NCBI GenBank assembly: GCA_016839765.1
Contig: JAEOTP010000007.1
Span: 1 to 64,000, forward strand
Reading direction: 5' to 3'
Source of the DNA: Promethearchaeota archaeon
GTDB taxonomy: Archaea; Asgardarchaeota; Lokiarchaeia; Sigyniarchaeales; SOKP01
DNA: 64,000 nt
Shown: positions 49,529-55,382 of the stretch, piece after piece
Layout of the letters: each line of letters starts with the position of its first letter
Numbering within the stretch: position 1 is the stretch's first letter
Position numbers and translations under genes: made by a program
The notes under the pieces: generated by a model
What the model was told of the DNA's origin: nothing
Databases searched by the model: none
What the model saw: only the letters and a program-made list of their open reading frames with translations

Positions 49529-50749
49529 TTGTTTAACATAGAAGAACCGATTATATACTACAAATCTTCTGAGAAAATGGGAGAAGTTGAAGATAGTTCA
49601 ATTCAATTAATAATTACATCTCCTCCTTATGGTCAAATAAAGAATTATGGTTCTAAAAATCAGATAGGATTTTTTGATTCTTTTGAAGATTATTTTCAAA
49701 GATTAAAAAATGTTTGGACAGAATGTTTTAGAGTGTTAGAACCCCAGTGTCGAATGGTAATTAATGTTGGAGACCAATATTTAAGAACTAAGGAATATGG
49801 AAGATATCGGATATTATCAATCCAAAGTAAAATAATTGAAGCCTGTCAAAAAATAGATTTTGATTTTCTTGGTGATATTATATGGCAAAAAGTCAGTACA
49901 ACTAACACAACAGGTGGTTGTTCTTTAATGGGTTCAATATATTATCCTAGAAATGGTTTGTTAACATATGATTATGAACACATTCTAATTTTTAAAAAAC
50001 CTCATGGAAAAGGAAGAAAAGTTGACTTAAAGATAAAAGAAATGTCAAAAATATCTTTGAGTGAATGGAAAAAATGGTTTATTGGACATTGGAAATTTCC
50101 TGGAGTGATACAAAAAGAGCATATTGCAATGTTTCCAGAAGAATTACCTTACAGATTAATACGTATGTTCACGTTTATTGGAGATACTGTTTTAGATCCT
50201 TTCGTAGGTTCAGGAACTACTCTTAAAGTAGCAAAATCATTATTTCGAAAGAGTATCGGTTATGAAATTAATGAATACTTCCAACCTACAATAAATAATA
50301 AAATTAAGGAAGCAAAAATTGGATATTTTAAAGATTTTCAATATCTACTATACACCCTTTTTAAAAGGAGCCGACAAGAAAATTTTGATATTATCTACCA
50401 AGAACAAAAACAGAAAGGAATCATTGCTCTTGAGAATTTTAATAAAAAGAAAACAATATTAGATTATTTATTAATTCAAAATAATGATTTGTTTAAGGAA
50501 GAAATCGAAAAAGAAATAAATGCGAAGTTAGAAGAAAATCCAGTTCAAAATTATTTAAAGGAAAAATTAGATTGGATTACTTTATCTAATTACATAATCG
50601 TTATAAATTCTAATCTACAATTGTTTAGCAAAATTAAAGATAGTTTTGAAAATTGTTTGAGAAGTTATAAGAGTAAGAAAGATGTTAGAATTATTCTATT
50701 TGATGATATTATTTCTGATAAATTTCAATTTAATACTCTCTTCATATAG
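49529..50749 (+). CDS. Site-specific DNA methyltransferase (N4-C/N6-A, beta class) with C-terminal extension
   Basis: ITSPPY precedes HIAMFPEEL and VLDPFVGSGTT. Confidence 0.9.
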   Translation: MFNIEEPIIYYKSSEKMGEVEDSSIQLIITSPPYGQIKNYGSKNQIGFFDSFEDYFQRLKNVWTECFRVLEPQCRMVINVGDQYLRTKEYGRYRILSIQSKIIEACQKIDFDFLGDIIWQKVSTTNTTGGCSLMGSIYYPRNGLLTYDYEHILIFKKPHGKGRKVDLKIKEMSKISLSEWKKWFIGHWKFPGVIQKEHIAMFPEELPYRLIRMFTFIGDTVLDPFVGSGTTLKVAKSLFRKSIGYEINEYFQPTINNKIKEAKIGYFKDFQYLLYTLFKRSRQENFDIIYQEQKQKGIIALENFNKKKTILDYLLIQNNDLFKEEIEKEINAKLEENPVQNYLKEKLDWITLSNYIIVINSNLQLFSKIKDSFENCLRSYKSKKDVRIILFDDIISDKFQFNTLFI

Positions 50750-50769: not shown

Positions 50770-50846
50770 AAATCCTTACTCGCGCAAAGTATTCATCAAA
50801 TAACTTTCCAAATTGGTTTTTTTATTTGAATCATTATATAGGATTT
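50770..50846 (-). promoter_or_regulatory. Putative eukaryote-like (Loki-type) SECIS element
   Basis: mRNA reads AUGAU-UCAAAUAA-AAAAA-CCAAUUUGG-AAAG-UUAUUUGA-UGAA: RUGAN/KGAW kink-turn core, 8-bp helix, unpaired apical As, mini-helix; outer AAAUCCU/AGGAUUU helix. Confidence 0.7.
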
Positions 50847-51774
50847 ACTTTTGGGAACAATCAATTCCTTCTTGAAGATTTATTTTCATAAATGCCTCCT
50901 CTTGTTGATTTCTTTGCTCTGATTTGACAGATCTATTGACTTGAGCCAGATATCTGATTGCATTTACTTTCCCTTCCTTTATGTTTTGTATTAATTCTTC
51001 TTTATTTAAACCACCAGAAATTACTAAAGCCGTTTGAAAACTATGATCGGGTTCCAATGTCATAAACTCAATTTGTAGGGAAGATAATATTTCTCCCATG
51101 CCCTCGTATAAAGTATTTGATAGATTTAATTTATCATTATCTATTTTAAAGTCTTTTGTTAAGCTCGATTCATAATGAGTTGATTTTGAGATTGGGGAAA
51201 AGCCAGCATATAATCCAGTATCATCGTATTGATAAATTATATCGTTCTCCTCATCATAACCCGAATAATCGTTATCAAAACCCTTTAATCCATTTACATC
51301 GAAATCAAATACGAAGTACATTGAGAAATCGATTAAATTATAGTCAGATATGTTTTTTATAGTAAAAAAGGTATTTATATAAGGAACTTTAGGAGGATTG
51401 AATATATCTACATACAATCTTATTAATGAATTTTCTTTTCTAAATTTAAGCGGAGGAATTATATTTCCTTTGACTAATTTTTTTAAGTATTCTTTTATAT
51501 CAAAATCAAGTGTAATTCGGTCTATAGTTGTGCCTGTTCTGGTATTAACCATTTTATATATTGGAGTAGGTTCAATATTTTTTAATATTACTGGAATCAT
51601 GCCAATACGCTCTCCCTTTAAGACAAATGAAAACCATGGACCCGCAAATTCCTGTTCAGTAAGGAAAAGTAAGGGTTTTTCTTTATACGTCAACTCCTTA
51701 ATTGAGAATCCCATCAAATAACCTGATTGATTTCATGTAGCCAAAACTTCATTGAAGGATACTTTTAAAACTAT
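50845..51774 (-). CDS. Candidate selenoprotein (Sec at codon 14, TGA 51735-51733); beta-rich protein of unknown function, 309 aa
   Basis: AGGAGGT SD 51790-51784, ATA 51774; reads (M)VLKVSFNEVLAT-U-NQSGYLMGFSIK into the annotated 290-aa ORF; SECIS-like hairpin after the stop. Confidence 0.65.
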
Positions 51775-51889
51775 TTTTCAATAACCTCCTTTGAATTGTA
51801 ATTAAAAAAAATCCATTATAATTATTTCATTATAATTATTTTATTATAATTATTAATTAAACAAATTAAAAAAGATATTTTAAAAGTAA

Positions 51890-52864
51890 TTACACTTTTT
51901 CTATAAATCTATAGGCGATATAAAGGAATGCTTCGTTGACATTTTCGCCCGTTTTAGCACTTGTCACTATGAAATGAAGGTCTAACTGTTTCGCAATAAC
52001 TTTAATCTGTTCTTCAGTAATGACAATATTTTTATTTAAATCTGATTTATTACCTACGATAACAATTGGGATATTACGTGGAACAGATTCTTTAATATCT
52101 TTAAACCAAGTTTTAATACTATCTAGATGATCTCGCGTTCTATCAACCACAATAAATGCAGCATTGGCACCATCATAGAATCTTTGCCTATAAGGTCTAA
52201 TTTGTCCAATCTGTCCACCTATATCCCATAAAACAAAATTCAGTTTTGTATTTTCGTCCATGATAATTGATTTTTTCGATATTTCAACGCCAATCGTGGA
52301 AATATAATCCTCCTTAAAATTATTTTCAACAAATCTTCGAATTAAAGAAGTTTTACCCACTTTAAAATCTCCAGTTACTATTAATTTAGCTGTAAATTGT
52401 CCTTTTGGTAACTTTCCTTCTCTTCTTTTAGATAATACTCTTATTATTTCTGGAATTTTAATTGAGACATTCTCATTTCCTTCTAATAACATCTCAATTT
52501 TGCCTGCAATATGTTCAGAATAAACTTTTAACTCAACATCCGAAGTTGATGGATCCGCAATTGTAGTTAGAATGGAGTGATGTCCCATTGAACAATATGC
52601 GAATTTTCTGTTTTGTAATGAGGTTATGTTGAAAAAATTACTTTGAGTCTGATACTCACTTTTTATTCTATCGATATATATATCTAAAAATGCTGAAATT
52701 GCACCTATAATAGAATCTGAATCTTTATCTTCCTTAACTTTACTCTCCGAAGCTATAATAAAACCATCTCTGTCGCATAACGCAACAGCTGCTGCACCAT
52801 CAACTTCATACATATAATTTTTCAATAGTGTAGTAATGAGATTAATATTAGGAAGACTTTCCAT
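51890..52864 (-). CDS. Roadblock domain fused to a Rab/Ras-like small GTPase
   Basis: VALCDRDGFIIAS roadblock N-terminus; G1 GDFKVGKTS, G2 TIGVE, G3 WDIGGQ, G4 NKSD, G5 TSAK. Confidence 0.92.
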   Translation of the reverse strand: MESLPNINLITTLLKNYMYEVDGAAAVALCDRDGFIIASESKVKEDKDSDSIIGAISAFLDIYIDRIKSEYQTQSNFFNITSLQNRKFAYCSMGHHSILTTIADPSTSDVELKVYSEHIAGKIEMLLEGNENVSIKIPEIIRVLSKRREGKLPKGQFTAKLIVTGDFKVGKTSLIRRFVENNFKEDYISTIGVEISKKSIIMDENTKLNFVLWDIGGQIGQIRPYRQRFYDGANAAFIVVDRTRDHLDSIKTWFKDIKESVPRNIPIVIVGNKSDLNKNIVITEEQIKVIAKQLDLHFIVTSAKTGENVNEAFLYIAYRFIEKV

Positions 52865-53465: not shown

Positions 53466-55382
53466 TCATAAATTTTTTAAGAAATTTGAAATATATTGTC
53501 TATTTTTATATGAAATCTGATATATATTAAAAACTAAAGAATCAATATCATTTTGTAATTTGTCAATCTCTTTCTTGCTTAAATCATTAAGTGATATAAT
53601 TTTTCTAACCTTTTCTTGAATATTTTTAGAAATTAGTAGTTCATTGGGTGTTTGAGGGAACTTAATAGGTAAATTTTTAACTTTTTCAATAAGAATCCTT
53701 GGAAACAATTTCTTATAAGAGCCAAAAATCTTGATAAAATAATACGATAATAATTGAGAATTTAATAAACCTAATAAATAAAAATGATTAAATTCAGGTA
53801 TAGGAGTCTTGATAATTTTTATATTGTAAAAGGACTGAGAAGTCAAAGATTCCTTATCATAAGTAGCACATATTAAATTATTTTGACTTAGCTGTCGTAG
53901 AACAATTCTATCTTTATAATCCTCTATATTTTTGTAATTGATTCCCCTTTTTTTGATATTAATATATTTGTATCGTTTTACATGGTATCTATTCATTGAA
54001 AATAGGAAGGGTCTGTAATTTTCCTCTAATCCTTTAGGAATTTTATTATTAATAATTTTCTCTACGATATGTAAATCCAAAAGAGAATTACAATCTTTAC
54101 ATATAGCATTATTTTTGGGAAGGGGAAGGTATCTCTTACATTTTTTGCAATAAACTATTGCTCCCTCTTTTCCTAATTCTACACCCCTAAAAATGATAAT
54201 TTTATACTCTGGATTTTTCATGATATTTTTAATTTTTGGGAAATTAGAATTAAGATATTCAACAATTTTGATATCAATATCATTAATACTTACTAAAAAC
54301 TTATACTCCCACTCTTTAAGAGTGGATTGTTTGATAGAAATATTTAATCCACTGTTAATTAATGGATTATATATCGATATTAAATTTCTAAGTCTCTCTT
54401 CTTCTTCTCTTTCTTTTTGTAATATTATTATAACATTTGAAACAATCGGGTCCTCAAAACTAGGACCAATATAGTATAATTCTCTGATTTTAGTTTTATT
54501 AAATATAAATTTTCTAATCAATTTTCGATTTGACAGGGCTAAGAGAGAATCTGGAAGGATATAACCTAAGAAACCATTTTCCTTTAAAACGCTAATACCC
54601 AATTCAATAAAAATTTGATAATAATCATATTGACCTTTAATAGTTTTAAAATCCCCTTGTTCTATTAAGAGTTTATCATCCGAACTGATATCCCTTAAAA
54701 ATAAATAGGGAGGATTTCCCACCACGAAATCAAAGGAATCAAAATTAGGATACTCAAGTACATTTACATTAATAATTTTTACATCTGGAAGTTCAAAACT
54801 ATTATCAATTTTAAGACTAATCTTAATTAGTTCATAAAACGAATAGTAGAGATTTATACAACATAAAATACAGGCAATAGGATTTATATCAAAACCGAAT
54901 ACATTTTCTTGAATTTCCCTAATGATAATTTTAGCCTGATCAATAGAAAGATCAGATAAACTTCCTAAATCAAATTTCTTTACATATAAATTTATTATAA
55001 TTTTTACAATTTGAATAAGAAAACTTCCGCAACCACAACTAAAATCAACTATTTTTTTGCCTTCTATTTTATTATCCATATTATAACCGATAGCATTTAG
55101 GATATATTTTACGACATGAGTTGGTGTGTAAAATTCACCTAATCTTTTCTTTTGTGTATTAGAAATCTTGCTTTCATATATATTTCCAATGATATCTATA
55201 CCCTTCACTTCTTTCTGGTTATTATAATAGCCAAAATCCTTATTAGTTCCTAGATTGACAAATATTTCAATTATTGCATCAATAAATTCACTTTCTTCGG
55301 AATTATGTTGGCCTAATTTATAAAACTTTTTTAAACGCTGGATTATCCCTTTATTTGTAAGAAAATCTATAAATTCTCTCAT
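53466..55382 (-). CDS. N6-adenine DNA methyltransferase (Eco57I/TaqI-like, gamma class) with C-terminal target-recognition domain
   Basis: GEFYTP, DFSCGCGSFL, GFDIN, VVGNPPY, LLGLLNSQL; CxxC..CxxC insert. Confidence 0.88.
   Translation of the reverse strand: MREFIDFLTNKGIIQRLKKFYKLGQHNSEESEFIDAIIEIFVNLGTNKDFGYYNNQKEVKGIDIIGNIYESKISNTQKKRLGEFYTPTHVVKYILNAIGYNMDNKIEGKKIVDFSCGCGSFLIQIVKIIINLYVKKFDLGSLSDLSIDQAKIIIREIQENVFGFDINPIACILCCINLYYSFYELIKISLKIDNSFELPDVKIINVNVLEYPNFDSFDFVVGNPPYLFLRDISSDDKLLIEQGDFKTIKGQYDYYQIFIELGISVLKENGFLGYILPDSLLALSNRKLIRKFIFNKTKIRELYYIGPSFEDPIVSNVIIILQKEREEEERLRNLISIYNPLINSGLNISIKQSTLKEWEYKFLVSINDIDIKIVEYLNSNFPKIKNIMKNPEYKIIIFRGVELGKEGAIVYCKKCKRYLPLPKNNAICKDCNSLLDLHIVEKIINNKIPKGLEENYRPFLFSMNRYHVKRYKYINIKKRGINYKNIEDYKDRIVLRQLSQNNLICATYDKESLTSQSFYNIKIIKTPIPEFNHFYLLGLLNSQLLSYYFIKIFGSYKKLFPRILIEKVKNLPIKFPQTPNELLISKNIQEKVRKIISLNDLSKKEIDKLQNDIDSLVFNIYQISYKNRQYISNFLKNL

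Follow-up and report, generated by a model that had tools for sequence, protein, structure and literature searches.

Organization of the locus and its reading frame

The stretch of DNA analysed here (the window, 64,000 nt, C96:1-64000) derives from a 3.32 Mb genome that is 96% complete. On its minus strand lies a gene for a 309-aa protein (50845..51774, P0001; delimited by frame reading, structural model and fold match), whose nearest kin are found in Promethearchaeota (Lokiarchaeia) MAGs with protein identities of up to 99%. About 100 nt upstream and on the same strand is a gene encoding a Roadblock-Ras/Rab-like GTPase fusion (51890..52864), which matches Pfam Ras with an E value of 6e-37 and gives a weak roadblock-like match. 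Two DNA methyltransferase-like genes (49529-50749 on the plus strand and 53466-55382 on the minus strand), both without an obvious nuclease, flank this gene pair in many relatives.

An earlier note had proposed that the 309-aa product is a new selenoprotein with a single TGA breaking an otherwise open, ATA-led frame, and the TGA was found where it had been placed: the frame reads IVLKVSFNEVLAT-TGA(51735-51733)-NQSGYLMGF, and the next stop is the TAA at 50847-50845. The strong Shine-Dalgarno sequence AGGAGGT (51784..51790, minus strand) is likewise present and lies 67 nt upstream of the called TTG start at 51717. Another in-frame TGA at 51780, in the leader between the Shine-Dalgarno sequence and the ATA, is unconserved. 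The database entries for the protein are hypothetical proteins of 286-290 aa, shortened to a start near Met21.

A survey of 79 related loci points to an unusual start codon. A GAGG element stands 7-12 nt upstream of codon 1 in 77 of them, most commonly at a spacing of 10 nt, and codon 1 itself is ATA in 69, ATC in 3 and ATT in 2 (74/79 together). An in-frame ATG, GTG or TTG alternative of any kind exists in only six loci. L157 has ATG exactly at the position of codon 1, and L075 and L079 have it two codons before. The codons 5' of codon 1 show no conservation and are frequently stops. Because ATA, ATC or ATT occurs at a fixed distance from the Shine-Dalgarno sequence and canonical starts are available in six loci only, AUA initiation is the best reading, and we infer that translation of the window gene begins at the AUA at 51774-51772 (minus strand). 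The literature searched, outside subscription journals, yielded nothing on AUA starts in Asgard archaea. In a crude survey of the window's genome, 7 of 53 ORFs with a strong Shine-Dalgarno sequence had ATA, ATT or ATC alone in range, which suggests that AUH starts behind such sequences are not rare there.

Conservation of the UGA codon and Cys/Sec exchange

The TGA (51733..51735, minus strand), taken as Sec14, is kept in all 80 related loci (67-99% identity); it occupies the identical codon in 75 and is followed by a short insert in the other five. Synonymous codon variation runs on either side of it, from codon -13 to codon +9, so that the 13 codons upstream vary in a coding-like manner just as those downstream do. 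When 400 Asgard genomes were searched, the gene was found in 123 of the 134 genomes in the window's family, in nearly every case as a single copy with one TGA. In an alignment of 40 diverse homologues, with identities to the window protein down to 17%, position 14 is invariably Cys or Sec and is one of only four invariant columns; the homologues do not start at LMGFSIK, downstream of the UGA.

Cysteine replaces selenocysteine in the sister family f3, in which nine loci carry Cys at this column within a CxxC motif. These include genes of cultured species, and the Cys homologues include DSAG12_02345 of Promethearchaeum syntrophicum, NEF87_004727 of Ca. Lokiarchaeum ossiferum and K9W44_12540 of Ca. 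Harpocratesius repetitus, for whose accessions no mention was found in the literature searched outside subscription journals. CxxU occurs at the same column in five further lineages, one of them Thorarchaeia-type, whose members read CxxUG. The absence of a CxxU motif, which the earlier note had reported, thus holds for the window protein and fails for the family, whose ancestral motif is CxxU/CxxC; the window's clade lost the first Cys (Cys11).

The SECIS element

A type II eukaryote-like SECIS core (50792..50834, minus strand) was assigned from stem pairing, covariation and lokiSECIS features. Its AUGA (50834-50831) starts 10 nt past the TAA stop and is followed by an 8-bp stem (50829-50822 paired with 50803-50796), an A-run (50821-50817), a CCA/UGG mini-stem, a loop-final AG and the GA at 50794-50793; the tandem G.A core, 8-bp helix, A-run and apical mini-helix described in the earlier note are therefore all where it had put them. 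From pairing and compensatory changes, the whole domain extends over 50772..50844 and includes a lower stem (AUCC/GGAU) together with a small hairpin on its 3' side (50790-50778).

RNAfold returns both the stem and the mini-stem, with z-scores of only -1.3 to -1.7, so that the folding energy alone is not significant and the significance of the element comes from its conservation, covariation and genome-wide rarity. In a set of 54 sequences, pairing of the upper stem reaches 99.1% and five of its eight pairs show compensatory changes; the lower stem (93.5% paired) and the side hairpin (87%) also show compensatory changes in the same set. Slid registers gave 29-46% pairing in the same test, in which relatedness among the sequences inflates the shuffle comparison. 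A near-identical element follows 79 of the 80 close genes, that of L055 being divergent. A strict SECIS descriptor matched seven sites in the 3.3 Mb genome against 1, 0, 1, 1 and 0 in five shuffled versions, and the seven sites belong to hdrA, vhuD, vhuU, the window gene and three unannotated UGA-containing ORFs; a loose descriptor was unspecific (29 matches against 17 and 23 in shuffles), and only the strict version discriminates.

The lokiSECIS elements are 3' elements near the stop codon with an AUGA/GA core, an apical A-run and a loop-final AG (PMC4989117). The window element shares these features (AUGA, apical As, loop-final AG and GA) and is of type II, as is that of the lokiSECIS-bearing SelD; elements of that type were missed by the first lokiSECIS model (Mariotti 2016, PMC4989117). 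An Rfam scan of the hairpin did not return the SECIS family; lokiSECIS did not surface either, which makes that scan uninformative. Five of the seven Thorarchaeia-type genes have a SECIS unlike that of the window gene: its stem is 9 bp long and its core overlaps the UGA stop. No SECIS match was found behind the nine Cys genes, although the Cys-clade genomes checked encode Sec-SelD, nor, with the descriptor used, behind the UGA-bearing f2, f4 and f28 homologues. The hairpin was also considered as a terminator of the convergent methylase gene and rejected in that role, because the hairpin stays with the selenoprotein gene when the genes downstream of it change. In the same genome, the selD 3' region (C51:93545-94550) has no strict-descriptor match, which fits the reported atypical SelD SECIS, and no prxL SECIS is among the strict-descriptor matches.

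Selenocysteine machinery and distribution of the family

The genome encodes the machinery expected of a selenocysteine user. A tRNA-Sec gene (RF01852, 62 bits) lies directly above SepSecS on C34, the SelD gene has an in-frame TGA of its own (Sec-SelD), PSTK is on C67 (E value of 8e-49, below the TIGR cut-off), and EFSec lies in two pieces, one at an end of contig C34 and one at an end of C75.

With the TGA kept in 80 of 80 loci, exchange with Cys, a conserved and covarying hairpin and this machinery all in favour of recoding, the selenocysteine reading of the earlier note stands: the gene almost certainly has a Shine-Dalgarno-led AUA start and a UGA codon 14 that is decoded as Sec under a type II lokiSECIS in the 3'-UTR, and it represents, with equally high probability on this comparative evidence, a real and previously uncatalogued Asgard selenoprotein family. 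The UGA could instead be a real stop or a codon of the 5' leader, with the start at Met21 as annotated; every database entry does start near Met21 and AUA is an unusual start, but codon-level conservation reaches upstream of the UGA, Cys and Sec share its column, a SECIS accompanies UGA but not Cys, and a start at Met21 would cost the first hairpin of the fold. If UGA were read as Trp, the use of TGG for Trp in the same gene and the TGA ends of other genes would be hard to accommodate. Together these two readings are extremely improbable.

Full-length orthologues are confined to SepSecS-positive families except for f2, a single 66%-complete genome without a SepSecS match. This near-restriction, and the position of the f28 gene one gene (GcvH-like) away from SepSecS, could point to a selenium-handling protein, one that carries or stores selenium or assists in Sec synthesis. 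However, in the SepSecS-positive families f5, f6, f7, f9, f20 and f21 the gene is missing or only weak domain matches occur, so that it is not required for Sec synthesis; the f28 SepSecS is on the opposite strand, and kin are not independent of one another. Such a role is accordingly given little probability. The weak matches elsewhere correspond to the same sandwich domain within long proteins of 625-1900 aa.

Protein fold and cysteine residues

No sequence-level match to the window protein was obtained in Pfam, NCBIfam or the PDB; a HMMER search over 1.8 billion representatives returned only 39 proteins, and Atlas feature searches only unnamed archaeal clusters. The structure was modelled with AlphaFold. 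A first AF2 model built on close homologues had a disordered N-terminus, and a diverse alignment gave an ordered one (pLDDT 91.7, pTM 0.90). The model is a stand-alone beta-supersandwich followed by two helices and an ordered C-terminal tail, of which the last nine residues have a pLDDT of 58, and in it strands 3-13 and 16-30 form the first beta-hairpin, with Sec14 at the turn. The closest folds are those of 8rf9 (GH94; Z 20.3, rmsd 2.5 Å, 228 residues aligned) and 1ulv (GH15; Z 19.9, rmsd 2.4 Å, 212 residues aligned), the best matches as a group being non-catalytic N-terminal domains (VIA Z 18-20). The loose resemblance to GH15 N-terminal supersandwich domains noticed earlier is borne out by these values (VIA Z 19-20). 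Since the fold alignment begins at residue 1 of the 309-aa protein, the strand before the UGA would be part of the domain, and the annotated truncation would remove the first hairpin. We are thus highly confident in the prediction that the product is a soluble, single-domain beta-supersandwich of the GH15/GH94 N-terminal type whose first hairpin bears Sec at its tip.

The family shares this N-terminal supersandwich with GH15 glucodextranase and glucoamylase (1ulv, 1lf6), with GH94 phosphorylases and cyclic beta-glucan synthase (8rf9, 2cqs) and with the GH65 and GH116 families. In contrast to GH15 and GH94 members, to which it is 12-14% identical, it stands alone and carries CxxU or xxxU; the catalytic (alpha/alpha)6 barrel is absent and the protein ends after the two tail helices. 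A stand-alone, mutarotase-like carbohydrate enzyme or lectin with a redox-regulatory Sec could be envisaged, given that the fold falls within the galactose-mutarotase-like supersandwich group, with Z 12-13 against aldose epimerases, and that an acidic DFD...D motif is conserved across the 40-sequence alignment. Yet the top matches at Z 18-20 are non-catalytic, the same acidic motif recurs in long and probably secreted proteins (P0155), and the alignment contains no invariant His/Glu catalytic pair, all of which makes this assignment improbable.

The window protein has a sole Cys, fourth from the C-terminus as the earlier note had said. This residue, Cys306 (50857..50859, minus strand), was marked by its conservation as the candidate resolving cysteine; it is invariant in 74 of 74 close homologues and is also found in f3 and f4 Lokiarchaeia homologues. 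The C-terminal Cys is absent from the Thorarchaeia-type and f28 homologues, all of which keep CxxU. All homologues examined retain Cys11, the C-terminal Cys or both, and loss of Cys11 is limited to members with an invariant tail Cys. A homologue with a CKWU motif (L139, about 720 aa) is fused to a C-terminal region with a VWA domain, the only fusion seen. A divergent subfamily (P0138, P0143, P0147 and P0156) has CxxCxxC at the hairpin, its full-length members being without a C-terminal Cys; P0156 adjoins a DsrE-like gene.

Because Cys11 and the C-terminal Cys are retained in a complementary manner, we prefer a mechanism in which Sec14 would act as a redox-active surface selenol cycling through a selenenylsulfide with a partner cysteine. 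The partner would be Cys11 in the CxxU and CxxC members and Cys306 in the window's clade, which lost Cys11, and the supersandwich would serve as a binding platform and not as a glycosidase. We lean slightly towards this proposal. Its main rival, by reason of the CxxUG or CxxCxxC found in some members, is that the protein is a true selenoprotein whose Sec binds a metal or metalloid. The hairpin with CxxC/CxxU(G), which we take to resemble a rubredoxin or zinc-knuckle half-site, would then need the C-terminal Cys, a third Cys (in CxxCxxC members) or a second subunit to complete it. The location of the motif at a beta-hairpin turn in the model, the CxxUG of Thorarchaeia-type members and the CxxCxxC of full-length proteins lacking a tail Cys would all suit a metal site, but the largest clade, that of the window, lost Cys11, and Sec14 with Cys306 offers too few ligands for a mononuclear site within one chain. 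We regard a metal site as fairly unlikely.

Linkage to a Roadblock-GTPase gene

The GTPase gene is located directly upstream in 76 of 79 close loci, in all 11 distant f1 loci and in all 8 Cys-clade loci, where the gap narrows to as little as 21-38 nt. The Cys-clade GTPase finds its best match in the window's genome in the upstream GTPase gene, so that orthology holds across families. This linkage is confined to f1 and f3; f2, f4, f28 and the Thorarchaeia-type members have other neighbours. In f28 (L136, L137, L150 and L151) the CxxU homologue is followed by a GcvH-like gene and then by SepSecS on the opposite strand; the CxxU motif was read in L136 and L137, in both of which a radical-SAM (NifB-like) gene is upstream.

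The linkage suggests a signalling role. Asgard gene layout is, though, a poor guide to GTPase partners (PMC10933270). A predicted complex of a Cys homologue with its upstream GTPase scored 0.01, which speaks neither for nor against such a partnership. It is only tentatively proposed that in Lokiarchaeia the protein would feed redox or nutrient information into the adjacent Roadblock-GTPase module, a proposal we consider rather doubtful. Taken as a whole, the explanation we judge best, and reasonably probable, is a new Asgard Sec family with a redox-active Sec supersandwich and possible input to the GTPase module. A bolder version would make the protein, as a selenoprotein specific to Asgard archaea and of a fold new to selenoproteins, a redox switch on the Roadblock-Rab-like GTPase module. 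Its expression would be gated by the AUA start, by the recoding of UGA and, in certain lineages, by EndA splicing one base 3' of that codon. We consider this version fairly unlikely; if true, it would put GTPase signalling of a eukaryote-like kind under redox control by selenium in archaeal relatives of eukaryotes.

Putative introns in relatives

Six relatives carry an insert of 28-32 nt one base 3' of the UGA (L031:4959-4986, L037:4958-4986, L045:4955-4986, L046:4956-4986, L058:1737-1767 and L164), whereas the window gene is without an intron. The inserts have conserved ends and variable middles, and their lengths break the frame in both directions. They can be drawn as a relaxed HBh' bulge-helix-bulge (BHB) with a CUUG/CAAG helix in all six; the intron helix measures 4-10 bp in five and falls to 0 bp in L045 if no mismatch is allowed. 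In the five cases tested by script, the T-U-N-x-x-G-Y frame is regained when each bulge is cut behind its second nucleotide, and two EndA subunits are present. The inserts are hence putative BHB-type mRNA introns. In a quick tree, intron-bearing alleles occur in at least two places among intron-less kin of one genus, and the pattern occurs once per genome. An origin from a tRNA-Ser(UGA) 37/38 intron, considered because the junction CU-UGA-A|A mimics the anticodon loop of that tRNA, was rejected, as no donor was found and the pattern matches equal the controls. The BHB intron of the crenarchaeal cbf5 pre-mRNA is the published precedent (PMC2738675). It is alike in its BHB shape and in lying at or beside a key catalytic codon; the present inserts differ in that they belong to Asgard genes and sit one base 3' of a Sec codon.

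Comparison with known selenoproteins and further candidates

Seven Asgard selenoprotein families have been described, all from known seeds (Huang 2024, PMC11227280), and the lokiSECIS selenoproteins of Lokiarchaeia are SelD, VhuU/FrhA, VhuD/FrhD, HdrA and a Prx-like protein (PMC4989117; PMC11227280). The window family resembles these in the recoding of UGA through a 3' SECIS close to the stop, and differs in being an unrelated protein with an unrelated fold. It is missing from the published list of seven; its motifs gave 0 matches in the 87 supplementary files of Huang 2024, and neither homology nor motif connects it to any of the seven families, PrxL being unrelated in sequence and different in fold. 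The claim that it is unlike the familiar archaeal selenoproteins is thus upheld at the levels of sequence, motif and fold. The 2026 inventory of 119 prokaryotic selenoprotein families (PMC13188914) has no corresponding entry in its Table 1; the 11 archaeal families listed are all common to bacteria or methanogens, and nearly all are tied to hydrogenase/Hdr chemistry or to the thioredoxin fold. CxxU thiol-oxidoreductases (SELENOW-like, AhpD-like and GrdA; PMC13188914) have in common with the window family the CxxU/CxxC motif and the exchange of Cys and Sec between lineages, but the latter has neither a thioredoxin nor an AhpD fold: in its confident model, a beta-sandwich, the motif occupies a hairpin turn and not a helix N-terminus. 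The modelled fold is one that matches no listed selenoprotein, so Sec would be placed here on a glycosidase-type supersandwich, and the family appears native to Asgard archaea.

We attribute the absence of the family from earlier work to AUA starts and the UGA, which shorten the gene call, and to published searches seeded with known families. Its Cys homologues in the cultured P. syntrophicum and Ca. L. ossiferum make its function testable, and the type II SECIS with its covariation and the alleles with putative introns offer substrates for the study of SBP2-less SECIS reading and archaeal mRNA splicing. The Asgard selenoproteome, a bridge to the eukaryotic Sec system, is probably under-counted, since the same descriptor gave three more candidates with UGA and SECIS in this one genome.

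The first (C20:10364-10825, plus strand; L171:1365-1826) encodes 154 aa with a Gly-Cys-Sec-Sec motif, has an apparent ATT start and a strict lokiSECIS 8 nt past the stop, and lies in an arsenic-type cluster. It has no Pfam or NCBIfam match and is found in 52 of 60 family genomes, nearly all with 2-3 in-frame TGA codons; GCUU is intact in the 14 loci read. The second (C12:3643-3834, plus strand; L170:1144-1335) encodes a small membrane-anchored product, combines a GGGUPC motif with a strict lokiSECIS, and is present in 8 of 60 family genomes, mostly with one TGA. The third and weakest (C64:40325-41239, plus strand; L172:826-1740) encodes a product of about 320 aa, either secreted or membrane-anchored; its frame contains a TGA (GIAUD), its SECIS core overlaps the stop, and the TGA is retained in the three close relatives found (80-90% identity).
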